Below are positions 6,564 through 21,926 of a stretch of DNA of 21,926 nt, in pieces; within the stretch, counting starts at the first letter, position 1; each line of letters opens with the position of its first letter. Both the position numbers and the translations under genes were made by a program. The notes below the pieces were generated by a model. The model saw only the letters and a program-made list of their open reading frames with translations. It was not told the DNA's origin and did not search any database. Source of the stretch: a virus (taxonomy: Duplodnaviria > Heunggongvirae > Uroviricota > Caudoviricetes); the IMG/VR virus record IMGVR_UViG_2585427776_000012; one strand, written 5' to 3'.

Positions 6564-6655
6564 GTTTTGATTTTAAAACACAGATGGTTTTGTTTCTTGA
6601 CTTTCTTTGGTTTTGATTATTAAACTTTTGGCGTTCAGTTTTATGGAGCGACTCA
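6564..6655. promoter_or_regulatory. Divergent immunity-region promoter/operator interval (pRM/pR analogue)
   Basis: 92-bp AT-rich spacer between the divergent repressor and cro-like genes, with repeated TTTTGATT-type motifs and a TTTTAAAA palindrome. Operators not individually resolved. Confidence 0.5.
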
Positions 6656-6897
6656 TGAAAAAATCAGAAGTATTAGGCTATTTTGGCGGAGTTGTTAAAA
6701 CAGCCGCAGCTCTAGGAACGTCAAAAACCACAGTCAGCATGTGGGGGGAAGAGGTTCCGTGGAAATGGGCGTTGCTAATTCAGGCAGTCACTGCCGGGGC
6801 GCTCAAATATGAGTTACACATACCGACGGTTGTCATTCCCGGTTCTGATCATAATCCGCCTTCTAACCAAGGGGGGATTCATGAAAATCAAGCATGA
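6656..6897 (+). CDS. Cro-like HTH regulator (YdaS-family-like)
   Basis: 80-aa ORF with GGAG RBS 6 nt before the ATG at 6656. HTH-like segment TAAALGTSKTTVSMW. First gene of the rightward operon, divergent from the repressor. Confidence 0.7.
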
Positions 6898-7306
6898 ACA
6901 CATCCGCATGGCGATGAATGCCTGGGCGCGTCCTGATGGCGAAAAAGTTCCGGCAGCTGGAATAACCCAGGCTTATTTTGAGTTGGGTATGACGTTTCCT
7001 GAACTGTACGACGACAGCCATCCGGAAGCCCTGGCTCGCAATACCCAGAAAATTTTCCGCTGGATAGAGAAAGACACCCCTGATGCAGTTGAAAAAATTC
7101 AGGCGTTGTTACCAGCGATCGAAAAGGCAATGCCACCTTTGCTGGTGGCCAGAATGCGCAGCCACAGTTCAGCTTATTTTCGGGAGCTGGTGGAGACGCG
7201 GGAGCGACTGGTGAGAGACGCTGATGATTTTGTCGCAGTGGCAATCGCCGGTTTCAATCAGATGAACCGTGGTGGCCCGGCAGGAAATGCTGTGGCAGTA
7301 CATTGA
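6881..7306 (+). CDS. YdaT-like (CII-position) regulator
   Basis: 141-aa ORF overlapping the cro-like 3' end. RBS AAGGGGGGA before the ATG at 6881. N-terminus MKIKHEHI recalled as typical of Rac YdaT-type proteins (from memory, not searched). Confidence 0.6.
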   Translation: MKIKHEHIRMAMNAWARPDGEKVPAAGITQAYFELGMTFPELYDDSHPEALARNTQKIFRWIEKDTPDAVEKIQALLPAIEKAMPPLLVARMRSHSSAYFRELVETRERLVRDADDFVAVAIAGFNQMNRGGPAGNAVAVH

Positions 7307-7377
7307 CTGACAATAGCCATATCGAATCGCTTCCGGCAACTCGTGAGTAAAAAGATTCGGTATCAGAAGAGGTGAGT

Positions 7378-8448
7378 ATGGCTAACGCCTGGCTCAGATT
7401 ATGGCATGACATGCCAAATGACCCTAAGTGGCGAACAATTGCCAGGGTGTCAGGGCGGCCAATTGCAACAGTGATGGCAGTGTATATCCACCTCCTGGTG
7501 AGCGCGTCACGAAATGTCACGCGAGGTCACATTGATGTCACGACAGAAGATTTGGCAAGTGCGCTCGACGTGACAGAAGAGGTAATTGATTCAATTTTGC
7601 AGACGATGCAGGGGCGGGGACTTGATGGTGATTTAATCACTGGATGGGAAAAACGCCAGGTGCTTAAAGAGGACAACGGCAATATTTCGCAAACCGCAAA
7701 ATCTCCTGCAGAGCGCAAGAGGGCGCAGCGAGAGAGGGAAAGAAAGCGGGAACAAAATGGCGATTGTCACGGCGCGTCACGAAATGTCACGCACATGTCA
7801 CGACGAGTCACGACAGATAAAGATACAGATAAAGATACAGATCAAGAAGATCAAAACACTATGGTCCATGGCGTAAAAAACGCCACGAACCAGGCAGGGG
7901 ATGTTCAGACCGTCAATCTTGGTCAGCCAGCAGGCACGACACCGGAAGCCGATTCAGCGTATGCGCTGAAAGCCGATTCGGGCGCTGTGCAGCAGGTGAT
8001 GACCGCAAGGCCGGAGCAATCACACCAACTGCAGCAGCCCGAAGCCGATTCCGCCATTCAGCGGGAAGCCGATCGGGTAGTCCCGGAAAACACCGGGCAG
8101 TCTGTGGGACGAGTGGATTATCCGGATGTGTTCGAACAGGTCTGGCGGGAGTACCCGTTGCGTGCTGGGGCAAACCCGAAGAAATCCGCTTTCAGTGCCT
8201 GGAAGGCCAGATTACGCGAGGGGGTGCCACCAGAGGCCATGCTGGATGGCGTGAGGCGTTACGCAAGATACTTGGCGGCTACCGGGAAAACGGGAACGGA
8301 ATTTGTTCAGCGAGCGACGACGTTTTTTGGACCGGACCGGAATTTTGAGAACCCCTGGTTGCTCCCGGTAAGCGGCACGAACAACCAGCGTTGTGTGAAT
8401 CATATTTCTGAACCGGATAACGAAATTCCGCCGGGCTTCAGGGGGTAA
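7378..8448 (+). CDS. Replication initiator-like protein (YdaU/DUF1376-like, O-protein position) carrying internal origin iterons
   Basis: RBS GAAGAGG before the ATG at 7378. N-terminus MANAWLRLWHDMPNDPKWR recalled as YdaU-like. Gene contains two iteron clusters and an AT-rich repeat, as lambda O contains ori-lambda. Confidence 0.65.
   Translation: MANAWLRLWHDMPNDPKWRTIARVSGRPIATVMAVYIHLLVSASRNVTRGHIDVTTEDLASALDVTEEVIDSILQTMQGRGLDGDLITGWEKRQVLKEDNGNISQTAKSPAERKRAQRERERKREQNGDCHGASRNVTHMSRRVTTDKDTDKDTDQEDQNTMVHGVKNATNQAGDVQTVNLGQPAGTTPEADSAYALKADSGAVQQVMTARPEQSHQLQQPEADSAIQREADRVVPENTGQSVGRVDYPDVFEQVWREYPLRAGANPKKSAFSAWKARLREGVPPEAMLDGVRRYARYLAATGKTGTEFVQRATTFFGPDRNFENPWLLPVSGTNNQRCVNHISEPDNEIPPGFRG
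7504..7850. repeat. Candidate replication origin: two clusters of GTCACG iterons at about 10-bp phasing plus an AT-rich tandem repeat
   Basis: Cluster 1 around 7504-7546 and cluster 2 around 7765-7816 (5 evenly spaced copies: tGTCACGgcgcGTCACGaaatGTCACGcacatGTCACGacgaGTCACG). Immediately followed by ATAAAGATACAG x2 and an A-rich tract (7817-7850). Confidence 0.7.
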
Positions 8449-8488
8449 GTGTTAATTTCTGGTCATGAGGTAATTTTCAGGAGGGCTT

Positions 8489-8911
8489 GTGGCAAAAGTT
8501 TTTACACAAGAAGAGCGGGAAAAAATTAAAGGACAGGTTGTTGAACTCGTACGCCAGAGTGGGCGTGAGACGTTACGGCAACTGGAAGTCAAGACAGGTG
8601 CGACAAGATATCTGATGAGCGTTCTCGCAAGAGAGCTGGTTGCCAGCGGCGATGTATGCAACTCTGGTTACGGGTTATTCCCGTCTGAACAGGCGCGTAA
8701 GGACTGGCAAAATGCCCGTAAAAAGCTCTCAAGGGCAAAGCTGAAGAAACCATCTGCGGTTGATCCGGACCTTATCTGGTCATTACCTGACGGAGAAATA
8801 CGTCGCTACGACAGGCGTCAGAACATAATCTGTCGCGAGTGCCGGAAGAGTGAAGTTATGCAGCGCATATTGTCGTTTTATCAGGGTGATGTTCGGTATT
8901 TATTGAAGTGA
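8489..8911 (+). CDS. Hypothetical protein (140 aa) downstream of the replication gene
   Basis: GTG start at 8489 with AGGAGG 6 nt upstream. Basic, helical; no recognisable catalytic motif. Occupies the position where a helicase loader (P/DnaC-like) would usually be. Confidence 0.55.
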   Translation: MAKVFTQEEREKIKGQVVELVRQSGRETLRQLEVKTGATRYLMSVLARELVASGDVCNSGYGLFPSEQARKDWQNARKKLSRAKLKKPSAVDPDLIWSLPDGEIRRYDRRQNIICRECRKSEVMQRILSFYQGDVRYLLK

Positions 8912-9042
8912 CGAGATTAAAGTGCATTAGTTCAGATGCAAATTGACATTTTGTGGCACAGGGTAGAGCTAGCGTGGTTGTCCGCTTTGTGCCAATAGCG
9001 GACATTGCTGGCTCATGGTATGTTAGTTTAAGGAGGCAGGTT

Positions 9043-10065
9043 ATGCCCTGTATTTCGCTGTGGTATAATAGTTGCGCAATTGATACAAGGGAGCGTTACA
9101 TCGTGAAAATTGTTTTCGAGGTTAATGGAAAGAAAGTTCCACTAAAATCTTTAAAATACATAAGCAAAAAAGATCAACTCGAAGTAATGAAAAACTGGTT
9201 CTTTGAAAACTTTGAAGATCCGGCAAATGCTTGTCCGTATGAAAGTAGAGAAGGTGGCTATGCTTACATATATGGCGGGCCGTATGATGCGAGCGAAGAA
9301 CTACAATCCATCTTCGGTCAATATGTTAAATCTGAGTATATTGAGGAATTAGTAGATGAATTACAAACACAATGTTTTGACTGGTCTGGAAACTCAAATA
9401 ATATAGATGATTGGTACGATGATGATATCTACGACGCTGTAACGTCTTCCGGTAATCCGTATTTAAAATTCATTGATAATATCGATAAAATAAAAAAACT
9501 TGCAAAAGATAAAACTGAACAACAGCAAAAAAAACACTTGCTTAGTTTGCTCTACACGAATGTTATTACAGCTTTGGAAACGCTTTATGTTGAGCTATTC
9601 ATTAATTCTATAGAGAAAGATGATGTCTACATAGCCAATTGTATAGAAAAAGGTAAGACTGAATTTAAAGTAAGCAAAGATATTGCTGCGTTGCCTTTCA
9701 AGGGTGAACCCATCGAGAAAATTAGGGGAGAGCTAATCAGGTCAATCAAGGAACACTTGATCAGTGCAAGCTGGCATAGCACTAAAAAGGTAATCGACCG
9801 CTATGAAGCTACATTCGATATAAAAGTACAAAAAGACTGTCCGATAGAAGCTATTGAATTGGCAACCCTCAATCGAAATCACTTAGTGCATCGTGGTGGA
9901 AAGGATAAAGAAGGGAACCTCGTAGTGATTACAGACCAGGATCTTGAAACGCTGATTGAAAATGCATCGAACCTGGCAATTATGCTCTACAACAGTTTAA
10001 ATGTAGCAACGAATAAAACCACCATTTTGCAACCAGATGACAAACCGTTCATTCATGAATTTTAA
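9043..10065 (+). CDS. AT-rich cargo gene A: protein with C-terminal HEPN-like Rx4H motif (putative RNase / abortive-infection effector)
   Basis: ATG at 9043 with AAGGAGG 5 nt upstream; alternative GTG start at 9103 with AAGGGAG upstream and an extended -10 (TGGTATAAT, 9061-9069). Sharp drop to roughly one-third GC (by eye). C-terminal helical region carries LNRNHLVHRGG, matching the HEPN R-[N]-x3-H signature. Confidence 0.6.
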   Translation: MPCISLWYNSCAIDTRERYIVKIVFEVNGKKVPLKSLKYISKKDQLEVMKNWFFENFEDPANACPYESREGGYAYIYGGPYDASEELQSIFGQYVKSEYIEELVDELQTQCFDWSGNSNNIDDWYDDDIYDAVTSSGNPYLKFIDNIDKIKKLAKDKTEQQQKKHLLSLLYTNVITALETLYVELFINSIEKDDVYIANCIEKGKTEFKVSKDIAALPFKGEPIEKIRGELIRSIKEHLISASWHSTKKVIDRYEATFDIKVQKDCPIEAIELATLNRNHLVHRGGKDKEGNLVVITDQDLETLIENASNLAIMLYNSLNVATNKTTILQPDDKPFIHEF

Positions 10066-10080
10066 TAGCGCAGGTCATAC

Positions 10081-11082
10081 ATGGATATTCGCACACGAAA
10101 GACAAAATTTTTAGAGTCGTTAGATTCAACTGAAGTGATACGCAAAGCAGTAAGTCTCGCTATAGATTGCATTATTGATAATCATAATAGTAATGAAGAT
10201 ACCCCCTTAGTTATTACCAGCTATGATGATCTCTGTAGAATCCAGGTGCTAAATTATGTACAGGAGTTTTGCGAAGCTGCATTCCCTGATATGGATGAAT
10301 ATTACTTTAGTCCTAACATACTTCGCATCAACGGCAAGACTAGTGAAGAAGCTTGTATTAACTTAATTAAACTCTTAAGAAGTACAAAAGGCATGCTATT
10401 CTGGTCCGATGCCCCATCGTGGTTCGCTAGCCTCCCCGACGGATTATTCCATGTTGTTAACATTGATCAAAAAATCGTTACTCGCGGCCTTAATAAGAAA
10501 AACTCTAAGCCGACAATAATCAATAAAGATTACAGTGTAGATACACTACTATCAGAGCTATTTTTGAATGGCGCACACATGGAGCAATCCAACGTACACA
10601 ACGTTTCTGAGGGAAACATGAAGTTCTATGATGAATGCCATGCTGGATTAATCAGACCAATACCCGCTCCAATAGGCGCGTCATACGATGAAGAGATCAC
10701 AATTAATTCTCCAGATTGGCAAAAGCTCGCGTGTGTAGCTTTACGCCGCTATCAGTCGAAGGAATGTCATGACGGAATGCAATGGGATACAACCGATCAT
10801 GGTTGGACTGATGTAATCGCGTATCCATTCGTCGAAGAAATACAATCAATGGATAATAGTGGTTATCGACAATGTTTAGTTGGGCTGGTCACAATAAACA
10901 ATTCAAATGCAAATTCTCCGTACCTATCTACCGTTTGGATACATCCATTTTATCGCAGGAGAGGGTTATTAAGTAAGTTATGGCCAAAATTACAAGAGTT
11001 ATATGGAAGTAACTTCGAAATTGAGCGACCTAATGAAAATATGAAAGCATTTCTGAAAAGTGCGAAACACGCAGATTACTAA
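10081..11082 (+). CDS. AT-rich cargo gene B: protein with C-terminal GNAT-fold acetyltransferase-like domain
   Basis: 333-aa ORF 15 bp after gene A, same AT-rich composition. C-terminal IHPFYRRRGLLSKLWPKL fits GNAT motif A (acetyl-CoA binding R/Q-x-x-G-x-G/A). N-terminal ~220 aa unrecognised. Confidence 0.6.
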   Translation: MDIRTRKTKFLESLDSTEVIRKAVSLAIDCIIDNHNSNEDTPLVITSYDDLCRIQVLNYVQEFCEAAFPDMDEYYFSPNILRINGKTSEEACINLIKLLRSTKGMLFWSDAPSWFASLPDGLFHVVNIDQKIVTRGLNKKNSKPTIINKDYSVDTLLSELFLNGAHMEQSNVHNVSEGNMKFYDECHAGLIRPIPAPIGASYDEEITINSPDWQKLACVALRRYQSKECHDGMQWDTTDHGWTDVIAYPFVEEIQSMDNSGYRQCLVGLVTINNSNANSPYLSTVWIHPFYRRRGLLSKLWPKLQELYGSNFEIERPNENMKAFLKSAKHADY

Positions 11083-11398
11083 TTTATGAATCAGTCTGTG
11101 GAGTTAGGGTTGGTGTCAACAAGTAGGGTAAGAGCCTCAACGTGATGCTATGCCGACCTGCTCCCTGAGAATTCACACAGAAGGCTGCTAGCAATGTCTG
11201 CAGATCGCTCAAAGCGGACTAGAAGGTTAGCTTGCGTCGGACTTGGCGTATTTAAAGAAGTGCTGGTGGTGACTGGTTGTTGTGTTCCATTTCTACAGAA
11301 CAAAATCACAGAAACTATACCCAATAGTTATATTGAATCAATGATGAGACAGCCTCATATTTATCAGAACTGGTGTACGTCCAATACAGGAGGTTGTC

Positions 11399-11488
11399 GT
11401 GCTGGTTCTCAAATGTGCGCTAGCTATTGCGGCTGTAATGGCAATTTATTGTCTTGCTGTTGTTCTTATGGATCGCCTTTCTGATTGA
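11399..11488 (+). CDS. Candidate small hydrophobic peptide (29 aa) just upstream of the hok promoter
   Basis: AGGAGG (11388-11393) 5 nt before GTG at 11399. Product VLVLKCALAIAAVMAIYCLAVVLMDRLSD is a single predicted transmembrane helix. Overlaps the 3' end of a Cys-rich 96-aa ORF in another frame, so only one, or neither, may be real. Confidence 0.25.
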   Translation: MLVLKCALAIAAVMAIYCLAVVLMDRLSD

Positions 11489-11569
11489 TTTTATATTGGC
11501 GAGGTGACGGGAGTTAAGTAGAATTGCTGCGGGTGCTTGAGGCTATCTGCCTCAGGCATGAACACCAAA

Positions 11570-11650
11570 GGCAGATAGAGAAAAGCCCCAGTTAATATTA
11601 CGCGTCCTGCAAGACGCTTAACATTAATCTGAGGCTCAATCTATGAACGG
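11570..11650 (-). ncRNA. sok: Predicted Sok-like antisense RNA (position inferred, boundaries approximate)
   Basis: In hok/sok loci the antisense RNA is transcribed opposite to the hok leader across the mok translation start. Placed by analogy; promoter not confidently identified. Confidence 0.3.
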
Positions 11651-11699
11651 CAAATCTAGGTTAGCCTCTTACGTGCCGAAAGGCAAGGAGAAGCAGGCT

Positions 11700-11855
11700 A
11701 TGAAGCAGCAAAAGGCGATGTTAATCGCCCTGATCGTCATCTGTTTAACCGTCATAGTGACGGCACTGGTAACGAGGAAAGACCTCTGCGAGGTACGAAT
11801 CCGAACCGGCCAGACGGAGGTCGCTGTCTTCACAGTTTACGAACCTGAGGAGTAA
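11700..11855 (+). CDS. hok: Hok-family type I toxin (in-frame upstream extension from 11643 = mok-like leader ORF)
   Basis: Product MKQQKAMLIALIVICLTVIVTALVTRKDLCEVRIRTGQTEVAVFTVYEPEE matches the Hok/Gef family as recalled. Upstream leader GGGTGCTTGAGGCTATCTGCCTCAGG resembles the conserved hok mRNA 5' end. Intrinsic terminator downstream. Confidence 0.85.
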   Translation: MKQQKAMLIALIVICLTVIVTALVTRKDLCEVRIRTGQTEVAVFTVYEPEE

Positions 11856-11920
11856 GAGACCCGGCGGGGGAGAAATCCCTCGCCACCTCTGATGTGTCAG
11901 GCATCCTCAACGCACCCGCA

Positions 11921-11946
11921 CTTAACCCGCTTCGGCGGGTTTTGTT
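11921..11946 (+). terminator. Rho-independent terminator of the hok transcript
   Basis: ACCCGCTTCGGCGGGT hairpin followed by TTTTGTTTTTT. Confidence 0.75.
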
Positions 11947-12022
11947 TTTTCCTGGCATTCTGGTTTACAATTCGCACGTCAGCCTGAACACCTGACACCT
12001 GCTGCGCCAGCAGAGAAAACAG

Positions 12023-12295
12023 ATGGCGCACAAAACCAAATTTCACAATTCTGATACCGACCTTGCCATCCGGCATGAGCGGCGTTCACACGCATTTAAA
12101 ACCGACTGGTACCAACACCCACCATGTACTGAAGAACAGGCCGAATGGCTGATTCATAACTACCGCAGACGTGGATATGAGTTTAGGAAAGCCCTCAGCC
12201 TCGATTATCGTCACTGGATAATCTCCGTCAGGCTTCCTTACTCCGAACGCCCACCGCGTCCGTCCCGCACATTCCAGCAACGCATCTGGAGGTAA
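12023..12295 (+). CDS. Hypothetical nin-region protein (90 aa)
   Basis: ORF between hok and the YdfU-like gene; stop overlaps the RBS/start of the next gene. No recognisable motif. Confidence 0.5.
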   Translation: MAHKTKFHNSDTDLAIRHERRSHAFKTDWYQHPPCTEEQAEWLIHNYRRRGYEFRKALSLDYRHWIISVRLPYSERPPRPSRTFQQRIWR

Positions 12296-12296
12296 C

Positions 12297-13343
12297 GTGC
12301 GGGTATTACTTCGACCTGTTCTGGTACCGGAACTCGGGCTGGTGATCGTTAAGCCGGGCCGTGAATCCATGCCGGTATTCCACAATACCCGGGTACTGGT
12401 GGAGCCGGAACCGAAAAGCATGCGTAATCTGCCGTCCGGGGTCGTTCCTGCCGTTCGCCAGCCGCTGGTGGAAGACAAAACATTGCTGCCGTTTTTCAGT
12501 AACGCACGGGTAATTCGTGCTGCTGGTGGTGCTGGTGCATTGTCTGACTGGCTGTTGCGCAATATTAAATCCTGCCAGTGGCCACACGGCGATTATCATC
12601 ACAGCGAAACCGTTATTCACCGTTATGGTACCGGCGCAATGGTGTTGTGCTGGCACTGCGACAACCAGCTGCGTGACCAGACATCCGAATCACTCGGGCA
12701 ACTTGCTCATCAAAACCTGTCAGCATGGATGATTGACGTCATCGGTCACGCAATAAGCGGTACGCAGGAGCGTGAATTATCTCTGGCTGAATTATCCTGG
12801 TGGGCGGTCCGCAATCAGGTGGCGGACGCGCTACCGGAAGCGGTATTACGTCGTTCGCTGGGGTTGCGTGCGGAAAAAATCCGCTCAATGTACCGTGAAA
12901 GCGACATCGTACCGGGAGAGCAGACCGCCACCAGCATACTGAAGCAGCGCACAAAAAATCTTGCGCCGCTGCCTCACCCCCACCAGCAAACCCCGCCACA
13001 GGAAGAGACGGTGGTCAGCATTGCCGTTGATCCTGAGTCTCCGGAATCTTTCATGAAACGACCTAAACGTCGCCGCTGGGTTAACGAGAAATACACACGC
13101 TGGGTGAAGACACAGCCGTGTGCGTGTTGTGGTAAGCCAGCCGACGATCCCCATCACCTGATTGGTCATGGTCAGGGCGGAATGGGGACAAAATCTCACG
13201 ATATTTTCACGCTACCGCTGTGTCGGGAGCATCACAACGAGCTTCATGCGGATCCTCTGGCGTTCGAAGAAAAGCATGGTTCTCAGGTTGATTTAATTTT
13301 TCGTTTTCTTGATCACGCCTTTGCAACTGGCGTGCTTGGGTAA
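12297..13343 (+). CDS. YdfU-like (DUF968) prophage protein with C-terminal Cys/His (HNH-like) motif
   Basis: GTG start with GGAGG 6 nt upstream. C-terminus CACCGKPADDPHHLIGHGQGG...CREHHNELH. Recalled as similar to Qin prophage YdfU; in Qin, hokD and ydfU are also neighbours. Confidence 0.65.
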   Translation: MRVLLRPVLVPELGLVIVKPGRESMPVFHNTRVLVEPEPKSMRNLPSGVVPAVRQPLVEDKTLLPFFSNARVIRAAGGAGALSDWLLRNIKSCQWPHGDYHHSETVIHRYGTGAMVLCWHCDNQLRDQTSESLGQLAHQNLSAWMIDVIGHAISGTQERELSLAELSWWAVRNQVADALPEAVLRRSLGLRAEKIRSMYRESDIVPGEQTATSILKQRTKNLAPLPHPHQQTPPQEETVVSIAVDPESPESFMKRPKRRRWVNEKYTRWVKTQPCACCGKPADDPHHLIGHGQGGMGTKSHDIFTLPLCREHHNELHADPLAFEEKHGSQVDLIFRFLDHAFATGVLG

Positions 13344-13355
13344 AAGAGGTGACTG

Positions 13356-13730
13356 ATGCTCATAGATTTGGTTTTACCTTACCCGCCGACGGTGAACACT
13401 TACTGGCGACGCCGTGGCAGCACATATTTTGTATCAAAAGCCGGGGAGCGTTATCGCCGGGCAGTGGCGCTTATTGTTCGCCAGCAGCGGCTGAAATTAA
13501 GCCTGTCCGGAAGGCTGGCGATAAAGGTGATTGCAGAGCCACCGGATAAGCGTCGTCGCGACCTGGACAATATCCTGAAAGCACCGCTGGATGCGCTGAC
13601 GCATGCGGGAGTGTTAATGGACGATGAGCAGTTTGATGAAATCAATATCGTTCGTGGTCAGCCAGTATCTGGTGGACGTCTGGGGGTGAAGATTTACCCC
13701 ATAATGCTTGAAGGGCAGGTCAAAAAATGA
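13356..13730 (+). CDS. rusA: RusA-family Holliday junction resolvase
   Basis: 124 aa. Motifs YWRRRG and DKRRRDLDNILKAPLDALTHAGVLMDDEQ match RusA (DRRRRDLDN...DALT) as recalled. Typical position just upstream of Q. Confidence 0.85.
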   Translation: MLIDLVLPYPPTVNTYWRRRGSTYFVSKAGERYRRAVALIVRQQRLKLSLSGRLAIKVIAEPPDKRRRDLDNILKAPLDALTHAGVLMDDEQFDEINIVRGQPVSGGRLGVKIYPIMLEGQVKK

Positions 13731-14548
13731 AACTGGAAGATTTACCGAAATACTACTCCCCAAAATCCCCCGGCCTGACTGATGCATCGGCCTCAACGTC
13801 GAAAGATGCGCTGAGTATCACTGATGTGATGGCCGCGCAGGGCATGACACAGAATCGGGCTGAGATGGGGTTTTCTGCGTTCCTTGGTAAAATGGGCATT
13901 AGTATGAATGACAGAGAGCGGGCAACAGAATTGCTGACAGAATATGCACTCAGTCGGTGTGATCGCGTGGCGGCGTTAAGAAAACTCCCGGCAGAAATAA
14001 AACCGGCAGTGATGCGTATTATGGCTTCGTATGCGTTTGAAGATTATGCCCGTAGCGCGGCGAGCAAAAAACAGTGCCCCTGCTGTCACGGAAAAAAATT
14101 TATTGAAAGCGAGGTTTTTACAAACAAGGTCCAGTATCCGGATGGTAAGCCGCCGGTATGGGCAAAGTGTACGAAAGGTGTGTATCCGTCTTACTGGGAA
14201 GAATGGAAAAAAGTCAGGGAGGTGGTAAAAGTTGCCTGTCCGGAGTGTGGCGGAAAGGGTGAGGTTTCCACCGCCTGTAAGGATTGCCGTGGGCGTGGTG
14301 TCGCCATTCATCGTGAAGAGTCGGTAAAACGTGGTATGCCTGTTATCAGAGACTGCCAGCGTTGTGGTGGTCGTGGCTGTGAAAGACTACCATCAACGGA
14401 GGCATTTAATGCCATATGCAAAGTGACGAGTGCTATCACGCTTGATACGTGGAAAAAATCAGTGAAACGCTTTTACGATACGTTGGTGGTTCGGTTTGAC
14501 ATTGAAGAGGCATGGGCGGAGCGGCAGTTAAAGAGGGTAACGCGATAG
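13727..14548 (+). CDS. Late-gene antiterminator Q (long, zinc-binding Q type)
   Basis: Start overlaps the rusA stop (ATGA). Several CxxC pairs (CPCCHG, CPECGG, CKDCRG, CQRCGG). Followed by a pR'-like promoter and short-transcript terminator. Confidence 0.75.
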   Translation: MKLEDLPKYYSPKSPGLTDASASTSKDALSITDVMAAQGMTQNRAEMGFSAFLGKMGISMNDRERATELLTEYALSRCDRVAALRKLPAEIKPAVMRIMASYAFEDYARSAASKKQCPCCHGKKFIESEVFTNKVQYPDGKPPVWAKCTKGVYPSYWEEWKKVREVVKVACPECGGKGEVSTACKDCRGRGVAIHREESVKRGMPVIRDCQRCGGRGCERLPSTEAFNAICKVTSAITLDTWKKSVKRFYDTLVVRFDIEEAWAERQLKRVTR

Positions 14549-14553
14549 TGTTG

Positions 14554-14581
14554 TTGATTTTTCCCGAATCTGTGGTAAATT
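14554..14581 (+). promoter_or_regulatory. pR'-like late promoter (Q utilisation region)
   Basis: TTGATT, 16-bp spacer, TAAATT immediately downstream of Q; an intrinsic terminator lies about 50 nt downstream, as for lambdoid pR'/tR'. Confidence 0.45.
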
Positions 14582-14628
14582 TGCTCTAACGATGGGCGTT
14601 TTATGCCTGACGTTAGAAGATTTTTTAC

Positions 14629-14653
14629 ACCCCGCCGCCTGGCGGGTTTTTTA
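14629..14653 (+). terminator. tR'-like intrinsic terminator
   Basis: CCCGCC-GCCT-GGCGGG hairpin followed by TTTTTT. Confidence 0.7.
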
Positions 14654-14774
14654 TGACTGAAATCGCGTCAGTACAGTAAACGCGCTGGTGGCGGTGAATA
14701 CCTGTCTTTCAGCTTGCTGGCTTTTTCGACAAGAGTTATTGGTGTGTCACGTTAACCGGAAAAGGGAAAAAGAC

Positions 14775-14972
14775 ATGCTAAAACAGCAGGATATGACAGA
14801 AACCGCCAGAGTAGTGTTTAATGAATTAAGCGTTACCGAACCGGCGACAGTCGGGGAGATTGCACAGAATACTTACCTTTCACGCGAACGCTGCCAGTTA
14901 ATACTGACCCAGCTGGTTATGGCGGGTCTGGCAGACTATCAGTTCGGTTGTTACAGACGCCTTCCGCAGTGA
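14775..14972 (+). CDS. Small putative HTH/winged-helix protein (65 aa)
   Basis: ATG at 14775 with AAGGGA upstream. Segment VGEIAQNTYLSRERCQLILTQL is HTH-like. The ORF track's longer version starting at 14688 lacks an RBS. Confidence 0.5.
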   Translation: MLKQQDMTETARVVFNELSVTEPATVGEIAQNTYLSRERCQLILTQLVMAGLADYQFGCYRRLPQ

Positions 14973-14976
14973 AGGC
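14944..14976 (+). terminator. Intrinsic terminator overlapping the stop of the small HTH gene
   Basis: GCCTTC-CGCAGT-GAAGGC hairpin followed by TTTTTTATTT. A second 11-bp inverted repeat (GCTGGTGGGTG ... CACCCACCAGC) follows at about 14998-15030. Confidence 0.6.
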
Positions 14977-15122
14977 TTTTTTATTTGTGGTAAATGGGCG
15001 GCTGGTGGGTGTTAGGGGCACCCACCAGCCATCTGCTCATGCGTTGGGTTCACAAGCAAACCTCAGGCCCACTGCTTTGCGCAAAAGCAGAATGAGCCTA
15101 TCAGAGACAGGCTTAATGATCC

Positions 15123-16172
15123 ATGCTTAATACTGTAAAAATATCCAGTTGTGAGTTAATCAACGCCGACTGCCTGGAATTTATCCGGTCGTTACCCGAA
15201 AATTCTGTTGACCTGATAGTCACGGACCCGCCGTACTTTAAAGTGAAGCCTGAGGGCTGGGATAACCAGTGGAAGGGCGACGATGATTACCTGAAGTGGC
15301 TGGACCAGTGTCTGGCGCAGTTCTGGCGGGTGCTGAAACCTGCCGGAAGTCTTTACCTGTTCTGTGGTCATCGCCGGGCATCTGATATCGAAATCATGAT
15401 GCGTGAACGCTTCAGTGTGCTGAACCATATTATCTGGGCGAAGCCGTCCGGACGCTGGAACGGATGCAACAAGGAAAGCCTGCGGGCGTATTCCCCCGCC
15501 ACAGAGCGCATTCTGTTCGCGGAACATTATCAGGGGCCGTATCGTCCGAAAGATGCCGGGTATGCGGCGAAGGGCAGTGCACTGAAACAGCATGTGATGG
15601 CCCCGCTGATTTCTTACTTTCGTGATGCGCGCGCGGCCCTGGGGATAACGGCAAAACAGATTGCAGATGCCACAGGAAAGAAAAACATGGTGTCGCACTG
15701 GTTCAGTGCCAGTCAGTGGCAGCTACCGAACGAAAGCGATTATCTGAAATTACAGTCGCTGTTTGCCCGGGTGGCAGAAGAGAAACATCAGCGCGGTGAA
15801 CTGGAAAAGCCCCACCACCAGCTGGTGGATACGTATACGTCACTGAACCGGCAGTATGTGGAGCTGCAGAGTGAATATAAGCATCTGCGGCGGTATTTTG
15901 GTGTGACGGCGCAGGTGCCGTACACGGATGTGTGGACACATAAACCGGTGCAGTTCTATCCCGGGAAACATCCGTGCGAAAAACCGGCAGAAATGCTGCA
16001 GCAGATAATCAGCGCAAGCAGTCGTCCGGGTGACCTGGTTGCAGATTTTTTTATGGGCTCAGGTTCAACGGTAAAAGCGGCACTGGCGCTCGGGCGTCGT
16101 GCGATTGGCGTTGAACTGGAGACCGGACGTTTTGAGCAGACAGTCAGGGAAGTTCAGGATTTAATCGTTTGA
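15123..16172 (+). CDS. Orphan DNA methyltransferase (beta-class amino-methyltransferase, N6-adenine or N4-cytosine)
   Basis: Motif IV VTDPPY near the N-terminus and motif I DFFMGSGST near the C-terminus (beta-class order). No adjacent restriction endonuclease. Same position as the methyltransferase of Stx-type phages. Confidence 0.85.
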   Translation: MLNTVKISSCELINADCLEFIRSLPENSVDLIVTDPPYFKVKPEGWDNQWKGDDDYLKWLDQCLAQFWRVLKPAGSLYLFCGHRRASDIEIMMRERFSVLNHIIWAKPSGRWNGCNKESLRAYSPATERILFAEHYQGPYRPKDAGYAAKGSALKQHVMAPLISYFRDARAALGITAKQIADATGKKNMVSHWFSASQWQLPNESDYLKLQSLFARVAEEKHQRGELEKPHHQLVDTYTSLNRQYVELQSEYKHLRRYFGVTAQVPYTDVWTHKPVQFYPGKHPCEKPAEMLQQIISASSRPGDLVADFFMGSGSTVKAALALGRRAIGVELETGRFEQTVREVQDLIV

Positions 16173-16221
16173 AACGGATGAGATTGCAGAATTAATTACG
16201 CACCATTATTATTCTGCTCCC

Positions 16222-16297
16222 GGCCCTTTAGCTCAGTGGTGAGAGCGAGCGACTCATAATCGCCAGGTCGCTGGTTCAAATCCAGCAAGGGCCACCA
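16222..16297 (+). tRNA. tRNA-Ile2 (anticodon CAT, lysidine type; a Met reading is not excluded by sequence alone)
   Basis: Cloverleaf by eye: acceptor GGCCCTT/AAGGGCC, D-arm GCTC...GAGC, anticodon loop CTCATAA, T-loop TTCAAAT, encoded CCA. Closely resembles E. coli ileX as recalled. Confidence 0.8.
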
Positions 16298-16304
16298 TCA
16301 CATA

Positions 16305-16381
16305 CCGCCATTAGCTCATCAGGAAAGAGCGCCAGCCTTCGAAGCTGGTTGCGCGGAGTTCGGGTCCCCGAAGGCGGTCCA
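16305..16381 (+). tRNA. tRNA-Arg (anticodon read as TCG; one mismatch each in acceptor and T stems)
   Basis: Anticodon stem CCAGC/GCTGG with loop CTTCGAA, D-arm GCTC/GAGC, encoded CCA. Anticodon read by eye and should be confirmed with a tRNA scanner. Confidence 0.6.
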
Positions 16382-16394
16382 TTATCTGTATCCT

Positions 16395-16471
16395 GCGTTG
16401 TTAGCTCAGCCGGACAGAGCAATTGCCTTCTAAGCAATCGGTCACTGGTTCGAATCCAGTACAACGCGCCA
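16395..16471 (+). tRNA. tRNA-Arg (anticodon TCT, reads the rare AGA codon)
   Basis: Acceptor GCGTTGT/ACAACGC, anticodon stem ATTGC/GCAAT with loop CTTCTAA, T-loop TTCGAAT, discriminator G, encoded CCA. Confidence 0.8.
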
Positions 16472-16513
16472 CACTTATTTTCCCTGGCTCGCTTTTGCGG
16501 GCTTTTTTTTAAA

Positions 16514-16732
16514 TGTCTCACAATTCAGGCGGTTGACTGTTGTCTGGTTTGCGGGGAGTTTGTTAAAAGAAACTGGCATGGTGAATCCCCCTGTGCGGAG
16601 GGGCAATCAGCGAGTAGGTATATGGGATAATCGCGGATTCAGGTGCTGGTACTGAATTCACCGGGAGGCACCCGGCACCATGCAATGGCACATAGCGCCA
16701 CTCTCCAGCCCCTCTCCGGAGGGGCTTTTCTG
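16514..16732 (+). repeat. Structured non-coding element, copy 1 (candidate prophage sRNA gene with intrinsic terminator)
   Basis: Shares with copy 2: CTCACAATTCAG, TTGAC box, CATGGTGAAT + CCCCCT..GCGGAGGGG hairpin, TGAA-TCACCGGGAGGCACCCGGCACCATG, and terminator AGCCCCTCTCCGGAGGGGCTTTT (16707-16729). Central segment differs. No credible ORF. Confidence 0.55.
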
Positions 16733-16920
16733 TGCCGGATACATCACAGTTTCTGGAACCTTAGGTACTACAGTATCAGTCAGGGTGCTATATTTTCAGA
16801 TGTGATGAAAGCCTGTCAGCAGGCAGGGCGTATCGGAAATGACCCAGTAGAGAAAACGTTGACTCAGATACCGGTGCTGAGTTACCGGGAAACCGGCATC
16901 ACATGACCGCTATCCTTCCA

Positions 16921-16948
16921 GGCCCATCCGCTCCGGTGGGCCTTTTTA
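16921..16948 (+). terminator. Intrinsic terminator between the two repeat copies
   Basis: GGCCCATCCGCTCCGGTGGGCC hairpin followed by TTTTT. Ends a short unit that starts at an extended -10 (TGCTATATT, about 16780). Confidence 0.65.
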
Positions 16949-16982
16949 CTGCAGAAAACAGGTTCCCCGTTAAATGCTATGT

Positions 16983-17217
16983 TGCTCACAATTCAGTAAG
17001 TTGACAGTTGCCTGTCAGACTGGGCATTTGTTAAAAAAATTTCGCATGGTGAATCCCCCTGAGCGGAGGGGCGACTGGTGACGGTATAATCTCTGATTAT
17101 CAAAACGAGAATGACGCGGGTTTAGTGGCACCGGGCTGAACTCACCGGGAGGCACCCGGCACCATGTGCATGATGATACAGATACGCGGCTTTAGCCCCT
17201 CTCCGGAGGGGCTTTCT
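16983..17217 (+). repeat. Structured non-coding element, copy 2 (paralog of 16514-16732)
   Basis: Same conserved blocks as copy 1, TATAAT at 17085-17090, terminator AGCCCCTCTCCGGAGGGGCTTT at 17193-17214. A further GCCCGCG...CGCGGGC hairpin follows at 17232-17257. Confidence 0.55.
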
Positions 17218-17446
17218 TATGGACAAAAAAAGCCCGCGCTGGGAGACGCGGGCGGCAAGGAATAAACAATAAAACGTGAAGTAATATTTCAGCTGGCGAA
17301 TAATACCCCATAGTAATCACTCTGCGCAACTGCGCGGTCTTTTTCGAATTGCGGGCTGTAGTCTCCCTTCTGCCATTGTCCTGTAACTTCCGGACTTCAG
17401 CCTGCTCCTTATCTGACTCACAACATTATCCCGCCCGGGAGGATTC

Positions 17447-17707
17447 ATGGCATTTAAACACTATGACGTGGTCAGGGCGGCATCGCCGTCAGACCTTGCG
17501 AAACGACTGACACAAAAACTGAAGGAGGGCTGGCAGCCGTTTGGTAGTCCGGTGGCCATAACCCCTTATACCCTGATGCAGGCGATTGCAGCAGAAGGTG
17601 ATGTGGTCGTCAGTGGTGCAACTGAGCCGGAGTGGTACTACGTCATCGTACTGGCCGGGCATCCGGTGTGGAGGTGGACAAGGTTGCAGAGGCTTTCGGA
17701 AAACTGA
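17447..17707 (+). CDS. Hypothetical protein (86 aa), probably 3'-truncated at a deletion junction
   Basis: Strong RBS GGGAGGA before the ATG at 17447. The ORF runs into the out-of-frame start of H-homologous sequence, so its C-terminus is probably not native. Confidence 0.5.
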   Translation: MAFKHYDVVRAASPSDLAKRLTQKLKEGWQPFGSPVAITPYTLMQAIAAEGDVVVSGATEPEWYYVIVLAGHPVWRWTRLQRLSEN

Positions 17708-19578
17708 CCACTGACCCGACGTCGGGGCTGATTGCGATGGCGAAGCAGTTCCATAACGTGACGGCGGAGCAGATTGCGTATGTTGCTCAGTTGCAGCGTT
17801 CCGGCGATGAAACCGGGGCATTGCAGGCGGCGAACGAGGCCGCAACGAAAGGGTTTGATGACCAGACCCGCCGCCTGAAAGAGAACATGGGCACGCTGGA
17901 GACCTGGGCAGACAGGACAGCGCGGGCATTCAAATCCATGTGGGATGCGGTGCTGGATATTGGTCGTCCTGATACCGCGCAGGAGATGCTGATTAAGGCA
18001 GAGGCTGCGTTTAAGAAAGCAGACGACATCTGGAATCTGCGCAAGGATGATTATTTTGTTAACGATGAAGCGCGGGCGCGTTACTGGGATGATCGTGAAA
18101 AGGCCCGTCTTGCGCTTGAAGCCGCCCGAAAGAAGGCTGAGCAGCAGACTCAACAGGACAAAAATGCGCAGCAGCAGAGCGATACCGAAGCGTCACGGCT
18201 GAAATATACCGAAGAGGCGCAGAAGGCTTACGAACGGCTGCAGACGCCGCTGGAGAAATATACCGCCCGTCAGGAAGAACTGAACAAGGCACTGAAAGAC
18301 GGGAAAATCCTGCAGGCGGATTACAACACGCTGATGGCGGCGGCGAAAAAGGATTATGAAGCGACGCTGAAAAAGCCGAAACAGTCCGGCGTGAAGGTGT
18401 CTGCGGGCGATCGTCAGGAAGACAGTGCTCATGCTGCCCTGCTGACGCTTCAGGCAGAACTCCGGACGCTGGAGAAGCATGCCGGAGCGAATGAGAAAAT
18501 CAGCCAGCAGCGCCGGGATTTGTGGAAGGCGGAGAGTCAGTTCGCGGTACTGGAGGAGGCGGCGCAACGTCGCCAGCTGTCTGCACAGGAGAAATCCCTG
18601 CTGGCGCATAAAGATGAGACGCTGGAGTACAAACGCCAGCTGGCTGCACTTGGCGACAAGGTTACGTATCAGGAGCGCCTGAACGCGCTGGCGCAGCAGG
18701 CGGATAAATTCGCACAGCAGCAACGGGCAAAACGGGCCGCCATTGATGCGAAAAGCCGGGGGCTGACTGACCGGCAGGCAGAACGGGAAGCCACGGAACA
18801 GCGCCTGAAGGAACAGTATGGCGATAATCCGCTGGCGCTGAATAACGTCATGTCAGAGCAGAAAAAGACCTGGGCGGCTGAAGACCTGCTTCGCGGGAAC
18901 TGGATGGCAGGCCTCAGGTCCGGCTGGAGTGAGTGGGAAGAGAGTGCCACGGACAGTATGTCGCAGGTTAAAAACGCGGCCACGCAGACCTTTGATGGTA
19001 TTGCACAGAATATGGCGGCGATGCTGACCGGCAGTGAACAGAACTGGCGCAGCTTCACCCGTTCCGTGCTGTCCATGATGACAGAAATTCTGCTTAAGCA
19101 GGCAATGGTGGGGATTGTCGGGAGTATCGGCAGCGCTATTGGCGGGGCTGTTGGTGGCGGCGCATCCGCGTCAGGCGGTACAGCCATTCAGGCCGCTGCG
19201 GCGAAATTCCATTTTGCAACCGGAGGATTTACGGGAACCGGCGGCAAATATGAGCCAGCGGGGATTGTCCACCGCGGGGAGTTTGTCTTCACGAAGGAGG
19301 CAACCAGCCGGATTGGTGTCGGGAACCTGTACCGCCTGATGCGGGGCTATGCGGAAGGGGGGTATGTGGGTGCTGCCGGAAGTCCGGCGCAGATGCGGCG
19401 GGCCGAAGGCATTAATTTTAATCAGAACAATCACGTGGTGATTCAGAACGACGGTATCAACGGACAGGCCGGGCCGCAGCTGATGAAAGCGGTGTATGAG
19501 ATGGCCCGTAAAGGTGCGCAGGATGAGCTCCGGCTGCAGTTGCGTGATGGCGGTCTGTTATCGGGGAGCGGGCGATGA
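17660..19578 (+). pseudogene. Tail tape-measure protein H, 5'-truncated fragment (C-terminal ~640 codons)
   Basis: No start codon or RBS at the 5' end of the homology. C-terminal region FHFATGGFTGTGGKYEPAGIVHRGEFVFTKEATSRIGVGNLYRLMRGYAEGGYVG...NNHVVIQNDG...LRDGGLLSGSGR is lambda-H-like as recalled. Confidence 0.8.
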
Positions 19579-19904
19579 AAACATTTCGCTGGAAAGTGAA
19601 GCCGGATATGGAGGTGAACTCGCAGCCATCGGTGCGTGAAGTGCGTTTTGGTGACGGGTACTCACAGCGTATGGCGGCAGGGCTGAATGCTGACCTGAAA
19701 ACATACAGGGTGACGCTTTCCGTGACCCGGGAGGAGGCCCGGCATCTGGAAGCGTTCCTGGCAGAGCACGGTGGCTGGAAGGCATTTTTGTGGAAGCCAC
19801 CCTATGCATACCGGCAGATAAAGGTGACCTGTGCCGGGTGGTCTGCGCGGGTCGGGATGTTGCGCGTTGAGTTCAGCGCGGAGTTTAAGCAGGTGGTGAA
19901 CTGA
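19575..19904 (+). CDS. Minor tail protein M
   Basis: 109 aa; MKTFRWKVKP...VRFGDGYSQR...LRVEFSAEFKQVVN is close to lambda gpM as recalled. Start overlaps the H stop. Confidence 0.9.
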   Translation: MKTFRWKVKPDMEVNSQPSVREVRFGDGYSQRMAAGLNADLKTYRVTLSVTREEARHLEAFLAEHGGWKAFLWKPPYAYRQIKVTCAGWSARVGMLRVEFSAEFKQVVN

Positions 19905-20641
19905 TGCAGGATATTCACGAAGAAAGTCTGAACGAGTCGGTTAAGTCAGAGCAGTCACCGCGGGTGGTACTCTGGGAAATCGACCTGACGGTGCAGGGCG
20001 GTGAGCGGTATTTTTTCTGCAATGAGCTGAATGAAAAAGGGGAGCCGGTGACCTGGCAGGGGCGTGAATATCAGGCGTACCCGATTGAGGGGAGTGGCTT
20101 TGAGATGAACGGGAAGGGCAGCAGTGCCAGACCATCGCTGACGGTGTCCAATCTGTTTGGTCTGGTCACCGGGATGGCGGAAGACCTGCAGAGTCTGGTG
20201 GGGGCCACGGTGGTCCGCCGCCGGGTGTATGCCCGTTTTCTGGATGCGGTGAATTTCGTTGCGGGCAATCCGGAGGCGGACCCGGAGCAGGAGCTGAGTG
20301 ACCGCTGGGTGGTGGAGCAGATGTCGCAGCTGACAGCCATGACGGCCTCGTTTGTGCTGGCCACACCGACCGAGACGGACGGGGCGCTGTTTCCCGGTCG
20401 TATCATGCTGGCGAACACCTGTATGTGGACCTACCGCTCTGATGAGTGTGGTTACACGGGCGGGGCTGTGGCGGATGAGTTCGATAAACCCACCACGGAT
20501 ATCCGTAAGGACAGATGCAGCAAGTGCATGCGCGGGTGTGAACTGCGCAGGAATGTCGGCAATTACGTCCGTTACCGGAAAATGTTACCTGGTTATCGCC
20601 GGAAGGGGAGTTTCAGAAGTGGAACGGCACAGCCTGGGTGA
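19904..20641 (+). CDS. Minor tail protein L (C-terminal ~25 aa replaced by out-of-frame tfa-derived sequence)
   Basis: 245 aa; strong similarity to lambda gpL through ...[16 protein letters not shown], after which the sequence diverges (recombination junction about 20565-20578). Confidence 0.8.
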
Positions 20642-20880
20642 AGGATACGGAAGCAGAAAAACTGTTCCGGATCCGGGAGGCGGAAGAAACAAAAAACAAC
20701 CTGATGCAGGTAGCCAGTGAGCATATTGCGCCGCTTCAGGATGCTGCAGATCTGGAAATTGCAACGGAGGAAGAAACCTCATTGCTGGAAGCCTGGAAAA
20801 AGTATCGGGTGTTGCTGAACCGTGTTGATACATCAACTGCACCTGATATTGAGTGGCCTACGAACCCTGTCAGGGAGTAA
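20578..20880 (+). pseudogene. Tail fibre assembly protein (Tfa) 3' fragment fused out of frame to the end of L
   Basis: Frame-1 translation [94 protein letters not shown] is the typical Tfa C-terminal region. No N-terminus or own start; the K, I, J and stf genes are absent. Confidence 0.75.
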
Positions 20881-20893
20881 TCATTGGGATTAT

Positions 20894-20945
20894 GCCGCAG
20901 CACGTCTTAAGCAAGAACGTGCTGCGGTTGGATGCTATTTTTTCC
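20894..20945. terminator. Bidirectional terminator hairpin between the convergent tfa fragment and methyltransferase gene
   Basis: 10-bp inverted repeat CCGCAGCACG ... CGTGCTGCGG followed by a T-run (GCTATTTTTTCC). Confidence 0.6.
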
Positions 20946-21600
20946 CTGAAGCGGAAAACATTACTACAGTACCTTGAACCTTGGTTTTAACATTCTCGAA
21001 ATGCTCTGAGAGTATATGTGTTAAGCCTTCTTCGGAATCTTTTGTGTTTGAAAAGATGCCTTTCTGATTGTAAATGCGCATCAGTTTTTGACCGAAGCTA
21101 TTGTGCACAACTCCATCGCCAAGAATTGTGGCTCCGTATAGAGTTCCATCGTCAGTTAAGGCCTGCGCCGCATTGCGTATTACACAGCTTTTTGTAGATA
21201 TATTTCCAGGCAGGCAGTGAAGAAGGTAAAACATGGAAATGGAATCAAATTGACCATGTAACGCCGCGGGATAAGGTTCAAAAACATCATGGCTAATTTT
21301 ATGTTTAATTTTTGATTCCCCAGCCCTTGTAGATGCCGCGTTCAGGCTAGCTTCGTTCAAATCCATTAAAGATATCAGACTACTCTCAGGTACGTGAGTA
21401 AGGTAAAACCCAGTTCCAACACCAATATCCAGATGGTTGTTACCTACATGTTCCAGAAAGTGTGGAAGAAGGTGTTCCTTTGTAGGACATCCCCATGCAA
21501 GCCGATTTGATACTCCCAAAACCCACCAGTCATAAAGCTTTAGGGTAAGTGGTGTGTAAATTTTAGCCCCATCATCTGTGTTTTTTTTCATTGATTTCAC
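20935..21600 (-). CDS. AT-rich cargo gene: class I (Rossmann-fold) SAM-dependent methyltransferase, substrate unknown
   Basis: 221 aa. Motif I HLDIGVGTGFYL (GxGxG-type SAM-binding loop) and acidic beta-2 end (LMDLNEASL). Low GC, opposite strand, flanked by tfa-derived direct repeats. Confidence 0.7.
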   Translation of the reverse strand: MKSMKKNTDDGAKIYTPLTLKLYDWWVLGVSNRLAWGCPTKEHLLPHFLEHVGNNHLDIGVGTGFYLTHVPESSLISLMDLNEASLNAASTRAGESKIKHKISHDVFEPYPAALHGQFDSISMFYLLHCLPGNISTKSCVIRNAAQALTDDGTLYGATILGDGVVHNSFGQKLMRIYNQKGIFSNTKDSEEGLTHILSEHFENVKTKVQGTVVMFSASGKK

Positions 21601-21659
21601 TATGTTATAGTTTTATTTGTGAATTAAATCAATTATGGCGATGAATTACAAGGGGTTAA

Positions 21660-21926
21660 ATGCTGCCGCAGCATAGCGATATTGAAATAGCCTGGTATGC
21701 TTCGATACAGCAGGAGCCGAATGACTGGAAGACCGTCACCACACAGTTCCACATCCAGGAATTCAGTGAGTATATTGCGCCACTGCAGGATGCTGTAGAT
21801 CTGGAAATCGCAACGGCGGAAGAAAGATCGTTGCTGGAGGCATGGAATAAATATCGGGTATTGTTGAATCGTGTTGATACATCAACTGCACCTGATATTG
21901 AGTGGCCGACTTCACCTGCAGAGTAA
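21660..21926 (+). CDS. Tail fibre assembly protein C-terminal-domain ORF (88 aa; possibly a remnant)
   Basis: AAGGGG RBS before the ATG at 21660. C-terminal 50 aa nearly identical to the tfa fragment at 20730-20880 ([44 protein letters not shown]). Confidence 0.55.

Follow-up and report, generated by a model that had tools for sequence, protein, structure and literature searches.

A defective lambda-like prophage remnant at the potB/potC boundary of Escherichia coli, with truncated nanS-p, H, L and tfa genes

In the cryptic prophages Rac, Qin and DLP12 of Escherichia coli K-12, the genes follow a lambda-like order, and large internal deletions have removed morphogenesis genes, lysis genes, or both. 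Cryptic prophages of K-12 and O157 retain the integrase, immunity and Q regions and cargo such as DicF/dicB, hokD/sok and tRNAs, along with truncated tape-measure genes and tail-fibre remnants. O157 Sakai is reported to hold a pool of defective prophages (PMC2669165).

The stretch of DNA analysed here (the window; 21,926 nucleotides, IMG/VR record IMGVR_UViG_2585427776_000012) is, judging by its gene content, a 22-kb remnant of a defective lambda-like E. coli prophage, predicted to be incapable of forming virus particles. Like Rac, Qin, DLP12 and the O157 pool, it has DicF, sok, dicB, hokD, and truncated tape-measure and tail-fibre genes. Unlike them, it resides at potB/potC, has its own break points and belongs to a rare lineage. 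It belongs with the routine cryptic, defective lambdoid prophages, and its break points are an unremarkable new instance. These break points (nanS-p codon 72/H codon 215 and L codon 221/tfa) are previously undescribed; a literature search on the source accessions (JOQP, CP050199 and CP050200) yielded no paper, and no description of the nanS-p/H or the L/tfa joint was found.

The window spans from the integrase stop codon to the end of a tail-fibre assembly gene fragment (21660-21926). On its 128-kb source contig, JOQP01000017.1 (GCA_000714145.1, E. coli 5-172-05_S4), potC, potD, cobB, nagK and lolCDE lie to the left of the integrase gene, and the last tfa fragment is followed on its right by potB, potA, pepT, roxA and phoQ. 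The prophage locus is the potB/potC boundary, with a 14-bp att core, CACCTTCTTATTCA, on each flank (attL 145-158 nt to the left of the window, attR ca. 250 nt to its right). In every occurrence of the exact integrase protein, potC adjoins it; the exact 830-aa exonuclease is found on JOQP01000017.1 only. The locus taken from this contig (L006) is 100% identical to window 7447-21926. An earlier reading made from the letters of the window, hereafter the sequence-only reading, had allowed for lysis and head genes lying just outside in a different arrangement. There are none, as the flanks on the source contig comprise ordinary chromosomal genes beyond the att repeats. The full prophage measures ∼22.3 kb; with ∼15 kb and ∼9 kb restored at the two junctions described below, it would reach ∼46 kb, a normal lambdoid size. 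The features of the left part of the window, up to the first junction, are as follows.

1-1119, minus strand: lambda-type integrase, 372 aa (Pfam Arm-DNA-bind_1 and Phage_integrase), with the stop codon at window 1-3
1088-1366, minus strand: excisionase (Pfam Exc, 23 bits, at the cut-off; annotated at the same position in relatives)
5925-6563, minus strand: cI-like repressor, 212 aa, with a helix-turn-helix and an S24 self-cleavage domain (Pfam Peptidase_S24, HTH_3)
7372-8448, plus strand: replication initiation/helicase-loader protein, full length (phrog_3729, 356/356 profile positions)
13727-14548, plus strand: late-gene antiterminator Q, 273 aa (Pfam PF03589 Antiterm, E 1.5e-49)
14554-14593, plus strand: PR'-like late promoter (alignment with the lambda PR'/6S region)
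14631-14652, plus strand: tR'-like intrinsic terminator of a short late leader (terminator scan: 6 G-C pairs, then TTTTTTAT)
15123-16172, plus strand: DNA methyltransferase, late-unit cargo (Pfam N6_N4_Mtase; PADLOC MTase_II, E 6.5e-165)
16222-16471, plus strand: three tRNA genes, anticodons CAT, TCG and TCT (ARAGORN, Rfam)
16547-16737 and 17015-17224, plus strand: two STnc100/PasD-type sRNA genes (Rfam RF02076, 136 and 165 bits)

The gene order is lambdoid. The integrase and excisionase genes lie beside one att site, with the matching repeat at the far end, and are followed by genes for the 830-aa exonuclease, dicB and DicF. Divergent repressor and Cro genes (S24 repressor, P22_Cro) then precede YdaT and the full-length replication initiator. 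Further to the right are DUF977, two proteins annotated without a function, sok/hokD, DUF968, RusA, Q and a 65-aa ORF, and then the DNA methyltransferase, the three tRNAs, the two STnc100 sRNA genes and the junction region. Full-length comparison with lambda Q gives 31% identity, and Q is encoded directly upstream of a promoter of the PR' type and a terminated leader. The promoter elements are a -35 TTGATT (14554-14559), a -10 TAAATT (14576-14581) and a pause element AACGAT (14588-14593); the -10 and pause elements are identical to those of lambda PR', as are GGTAAATTTG and AACGATGGG. The assignment of a Q-dependent late transcription unit was therefore correct, with a lambda-like PR' right after Q and a strong terminator beyond it. 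The same reading took the immunity, replication and cargo modules to be intact, and indeed the integrase, excisionase, S24 repressor, Cro, initiator, Q, methyltransferase, three tRNAs and two sRNA genes are all full length. The element may still be able to excise, as it retains int, xis and both att sites, but is predicted to be incapable of packaging on its own.

The reference loci for comparison were those of ML35 (L004), Z1323PEC0008 (L001) and E. coli GN04275 (L002), together with lambda (J02459). The GN04275 prophage, integrated at ompW, has 98.5% DNA identity over window 5501-17662, and the ML35 prophage, also at ompW, 99.55% over window 15885-17661. Both share with the window the order Q, methyltransferase, tRNA, STnc100, nanS-p. 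They differ in keeping the holin, lysozyme, Rz, terminase, portal, capsid and tail genes, and in having another integrase and att site, window 1-1409 being without a match there. The relatives have lesions of their own: a 1.49-kb internal nanS-p deletion in GN04275, a protease-to-capsid deletion (30782-32259) in ML35, and in Z1323PEC0008 a ydfR-to-FII deletion (20899-21845; lysozyme through FI absent) and an IS66 in H (24412-29447). As these late-region deletions show, such decay is routine in this phage group. The closest "intact" relatives, Z1323PEC0008 and ML35, are themselves defective. The repressor of the GN04275 prophage (L002 16345-16683) bears the annotation of a LexA-family protein of 113 aa, compared with the full 212 aa here, while the rest is 98.5% identical. 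The annotated repressor being this short, it may be the morphogenetically complete relative that has a damaged immunity gene.

The right part of the window contains two junctions and what remains of the late genes.

17447-17661, plus strand: 5' fragment of nanS-p, codons 1-72, encoding DUF1737 and the first strand of the esterase domain (tblastn, 98.6% to ML35 NanS-p)
17447-17707, plus strand: chimeric 86-aa ORF of 72 NanS-p residues and 14 wrong-frame H residues (ORF list, translation)
17659-17661, no strand: junction 1, a 3-bp overlap GCA common to both parents (base-by-base comparison with ML35, Z1323PEC0008 and lambda)
17659-19578, plus strand: H', codons 215-853, the 3' three quarters of the tape-measure gene, without the native start (tblastn, 93.9% to lambda H 211-853; Pfam Tape_meas_lam_C)
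19575-19904, plus strand: tail gene M, intact (100% identical to ML35 M; Pfam Phage_min_tail)
19904-20564, plus strand: L', codons 1-221 of the 232 of tail gene L (the ORF continues for 24 out-of-frame codons to 20641)
20565-20566, no strand: junction 2, two bases AC matching neither parent (base-by-base comparison)
20567-20880, plus strand: tfa', 3' part of the tail-fibre assembly gene (lambda orf-194 from nt 22244; phrog_105/Caudo_TAP)
20935-21600, minus strand: SAM-dependent methyltransferase at the right end of the prophage (Pfam Methyltransf_12/23/25; 99.3% DNA identity to Z1323PEC0008)
21660-21926, plus strand: second tfa fragment, the last prophage gene (Pfam Caudo_TAP; right flank in L006)

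The three references (ML35, Z1323PEC0008 and lambda) give the same break at junction 1. Homology to the full-length nanS-p prophages of ML35 and Z1323PEC0008 ends at window 17661 (L004 position 21182), and homology to H begins at window 17659, which corresponds to lambda 11184, L004 36249 and L001 25054 (blastn and base-by-base comparison). As H starts at 10542 in lambda, 11184 is the first base of codon 215. By megablast, window 16480-17664 matches complete E. coli genomes at 99.9%, in genes annotated as "SASA family carbohydrate esterase", and among phages the region from 17659 onward is 97-98% identical to the tape-measure gene H of lambda and 434, starting from lambda nt 11184. The junction, which the sequence-only reading had placed at about 17640-17665, is thereby pinned to three bases. 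The small gene that it had described as running out of frame into the middle of H can now be named: it is the 5' end of nanS-p, and the frame assignment stands, since the nanS frame is offset by 2 from that of H.

The ML35 NanS-p protein (617 aa) consists of DUF1737 at residues 3-50, a SASA esterase domain at 59-379 (PDB 3pt5) and a C-terminal DUF6645 (PDB 6yp6). Compared with NanS-p of the 933W type, with phi24B gp84 and with the relatives of PDB 3pt5 and 6yp6, the window keeps the native start, the Shine-Dalgarno (SD) sequence and DUF1737 (PF08410, E 5.8e-17, residues 3-50 of the 86-aa ORF). The break falls inside the codons of the catalytic GQSN motif (wild type VLAGQSNAMAY, window VLAG/HPVWRW). 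The Pfam search of the window ORF gave no match to the SASA/SGNH esterase domain, GQSN is absent from it, and the C-terminal DUF6645/lectin-like domain of ML35 NanS-p is absent from the window by tblastn. With the SASA domain, its GQSN motif and DUF6645 gone, the remnant cannot be an esterase.

In ML35, the end points of junction 1 lie 15,066 bp apart (L004 21183-36248). The interval holds the remainder of the esterase gene, a class II holin, YdfR, lysozyme, an Rz-type lysis protein and the small and large terminase subunits, followed by head-tail joining, portal, S49 protease and capsid genes, FI, FII, Z, U, V, G, T and the 5' 642 nt of H. When 24 lambda and 20 ML35 late proteins were compared with the window by tblastn, the only matches were H 211-853, M, L 1-221, the two tfa fragments and NanS 1-72. 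Neither lambda S, R and Rz nor the ML35 holin, lysozyme and Rz had a tblastn match in the window, and no unassigned coding space is left there for a lysis cassette. The same holds for Nu1, A, W, B, C, D, E, FI, FII and their ML35 equivalents, and of the tail module (Z, U, V, G, T, H, M, L, K, I, J) the window retains H 215-853, M and L 1-221 and nothing else. This search bears out the reported absence of holin, endolysin, Rz, terminase, portal and capsid genes, and the gene content, the flanks and the full-length early matches support the view of a cryptic prophage unable to lyse the cell or form particles. The inability to lyse is a prediction from gene content, and upon induction the cell could still be damaged by hokD and dicB.

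Compared with lambda gpH, H' keeps the C-terminal Tape_meas_lam_C domain, while its native start, residues 1-214 and the upstream G/T genes are missing. The gene-caller start is a GTG at 17668. A functional alternative start of the H fragment had been named as something that would refute the cryptic reading, and we found no convincing one: among the in-frame ATG, GTG and TTG codons at 17632-17950, anti-SD pairing reaches -6.2 kcal/mol at best, as against -10.3, -8.5 and -10.2 kcal/mol for the starts of nanS', M and L. Even if it is translated, H' would build nothing, given the absence of its N-terminal quarter, the G/T chaperones and the tube, terminator and tip proteins.

At junction 2, the match to L stops at 20564 (lambda 14087), and the match to tfa begins at 20567 (lambda 22244) in a different frame. 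The fusion of L to a tfa fragment with loss of K, I, J and stf, noticed earlier, is thus confirmed, and runs from L codon 221 into the 3' part of tfa, out of frame. The missing segment amounts to ∼8.2 kb in lambda coordinates and 9.07 kb in Z1323PEC0008, and would hold K, I, J, lom and stf. In-frame NanS-H or L-Tfa fusion proteins were also considered, and are ruled out by frame arithmetic and the ORF list; both fusions are out of frame and exist at the DNA level only. An Rfam match to "IS009" at 20639-20837 (225 bits) lies wholly inside the tfa' coding fragment. This family seems to model a remnant of a tail-fibre assembly gene and not an independent RNA gene.

The scar very probably arose by homology-independent (illegitimate) deletion inside a lambdoid prophage at potB/potC. 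One break would have fallen in nanS-p codon 72 and the other at H codon 215, the ends being joined at GCA. The ∼15 kb removed would have comprised the rest of nanS-p, holin, endolysin and Rz, cos and the terminase genes, the genes for portal, protease/scaffold, decoration and capsid proteins, FI/FII, Z, U, V, G and T, and H up to codon 214. K, I, J, lom and stf would have been removed afterwards by a second, separate deletion, which joined L codon 221 to a point midway in tfa without any overlap and with two filler bases. Following repressor cleavage and Q action, transcription from PR' would be expected to run through the methyltransferase, tRNAs and sRNAs into nanS'-H'-M-L', and would yield neither lysis nor particles.

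A 3-bp overlap, or no overlap with filler bases, is the mark of illegitimate end joining or slippage. The two junctions appear to fit this kind of process and not homologous or site-specific recombination. No genome with the exact left and right arms and an intact middle was found; how large the deletion was, and that it happened in one step, is therefore inferred from mosaic relatives. Over H-M-L, the window has only ∼85-88% DNA identity to ML35 and lambda. Nested successive deletions would give the same final scar.

Across the left arm, prophages of the ompW type, ML35 among them, reach 99.5-99.9% identity, while the first 740 bp of H' are ∼98% identical to H of phage 434/lambda and only ∼85% to H of ML35. 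Moreover, the same segment, scar included, follows a different early region in L008 and has rearranged surroundings in L005 and L007. These observations could speak for illegitimate recombination between two resident lambdoid prophages, or between a prophage and an infecting phage, in place of an internal deletion. We consider such an origin unlikely, as mosaicism is usual in lambdoid phages, the genes from int to tfa keep their canonical order and orientation between matching attL and attR at one chromosomal site, and the right end (20567-21907) is again 99.3% identical to an ompW-type relative, Z1323PEC0008. The outcome, a defective remnant, would also be the same.

The scar is real and rare. 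The exact 86-aa fusion product was found on at least 16 contigs (24 contigs read), and the carriers include three drafts of the 5-172-05_S4 series, the closed chromosomes CP050199 and CP050200 (5.8-5.9 Mb) and ENA metagenome contigs. L009 does not differ from window 16518-20564. L008 shows no difference over 16216-21567, and all of its 55 differences lie further left, in the rusA, Q and methyltransferase region, so that the same late segment stands behind recombined early regions. All copies are identical around the scar, which therefore is recent. Three of the contigs from ENA and NCBI (L009-L011) have junction 1, an intact 232-aa L, a different K'-J' deletion (lambda 14496 to 16657) and then lom. 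Since they keep an intact L beside junction 1, junction 1 is older than junction 2. The L'-tfa' deletion of the window came later, either atop the K'-J' deletion or independently.

In L005 (CP050200.1, 9172-15150) and L007 (CP050199.1), only window 16618-20675 is present in one piece. In L005, the tRNA segment 16216-16659 is inverted ∼1.5 kb to the right, beside IS genes. This layout means that the remnant has been rearranged further, with breaks inside the first STnc100 copy and just after L'.

One may ask whether H' or the DUF1737 stub is instead expressed with a new function beneficial to the host and retained for that reason. No internal stop interrupts the ORFs of H', M and the stub, the native nanS-p start and its strong SD (-10.3 kcal/mol) are preserved in the stub, and a different DUF1737 stub, of 75 aa, is found on at least 1000 contigs. 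Yet the scar-bearing copies are identical, so that their intact ORFs reflect youth only, and SD pairing at the H' starts is weak. DUF1737 is reported to be the capsid-binding decoration domain of the phi24B esterase (bioRxiv 10.64898/2026.04.10.717836), and there is no capsid gene here. A new host function of the stub or of H' is very unlikely. The domestication proposed in the sequence-only reading is compatible with the data and is not demonstrated by them: the copies of the scar are identical over 4-5 kb, and zero divergence among ∼16 contigs leaves nothing from which to infer selection.

With int, xis, the att sites, repressor, replication protein, Q and PR' all intact, the element could also be taken for a purpose-built satellite that uses a helper lambdoid phage for lysis and capsids. 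Mobilisation of defective O157 prophages through other prophages has been reported (PMC2669165). However, the borders of the missing block cut genes in the middle and out of frame, no cos, small terminase or capsid-redirecting gene is left for packaging of the PICI-like type, and the sister lineages have further, different truncations, which is a signature of erosion and not of design. A satellite is thus extremely unlikely. Finally, although drafts often collapse or mis-join repeated prophage DNA, and junctions 1 and 2 are spanned in none of the 5,426 complete RefSeq E. coli genomes (megablast) and junction 1 has no exact match among GTDB representative genomes, an assembly or scaffolding artefact joining two prophage fragments is effectively refuted, because the scar is base-for-base the same, with 100% DNA identity, in independent assemblies from independent sources, including the two closed chromosomes and the ENA metagenomes.

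The erosion of this prophage is of little importance beyond annotation, and shows how and in what order a prophage became defective. In these genomes, the annotations "DUF1737 protein", "tape measure protein" and "minor tail protein L" refer to gene remnants, which ought to be marked as pseudogenes. Stepwise erosion that spares the Q-controlled tRNA and sRNA cargo has a clean example here.

The sole point that might repay further work is the break site in nanS-p, as a possible mutational hotspot. The 75-aa DUF1737 stub (...VLARHSRP) corresponds to a 1.49-kb internal nanS-p deletion at a CTGGCC repeat, present in GN04275 (L002 28070-28090) and L020-L023 and recorded on at least 1000 contigs. 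Only 0-5 nt separate the left end of this deletion from the window break to its right (17650-17661), and both fall inside the 11-nt CTGGCCGGGCA, in the GQSN codons. The GN04275-type truncation is not the same event as the window junction: the joints read CTGGCC/CGGCATTCC and GGGCA/TCCGGTG, respectively, and the right partners differ. One might speculate that CTGGCCGGGCA is a recurrent deletion hotspot, or that stubs keeping DUF1737 are preferentially retained, and, linked with this, that the remnant serves as a lysis-free, SOS/Q-inducible cassette for the methyltransferase, the three tRNAs and the STnc100/PasD-type sRNAs; we regard these linked possibilities as unlikely. Whether hotspot or coincidence, two events are too few to call a hotspot.

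The cargo between Q and junction 1 has some further features. ARAGORN predicts the tRNA at 16222-16297 as tRNA-Met (CAT), and RefSeq relatives annotate the identical position as tRNA-Ile; presumably, it is a lysidine-modified CAU tRNA of the ileZ type. The tandem STnc100/PasD-type copies have ∼70% mutual identity and a terminator each. A degenerate third copy (16776-16949, 30 bits) lies between them, and a TTGAC(T/A) motif is found 5' of each copy. A layout of pasD/STnc100, esterase, pasA/C and holin is known in such prophages (bioRxiv 10.64898/2026.05.13.724894); here, nothing of it is left beyond the first 72 esterase codons.

On the minus strand, a strong intrinsic terminator (17253-17232; 7 G-C pairs and T7) follows a block whose conservation extends even to phage PhiR5_2, at 80% identity, and -35 TTGCGC and -10 TATTAT-like hexamers are present upstream on that strand. 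Beyond the STnc100 copies, an Rfam search of 16450-17800 at a relaxed threshold gave only a sub-threshold OmrA-B-like match (minus strand, 17225-17313, E 0.034), and the folding z-score for the minus strand of 17225-17420 was only -0.94. The minus strand of 17225-17320 is a candidate for an sRNA of 70-90 nt transcribed away from nanS-p. Between the replication module and hokD, two adjoining genes at 9103-11082 encode proteins of 320 and 333 aa (phrog_17908 and phrog_16994), which had no meaningful match in PADLOC. Their only other matches are weak ones to HEPN_RES_NTD1 and GNAT, and they are a possible toxin or defence pair.
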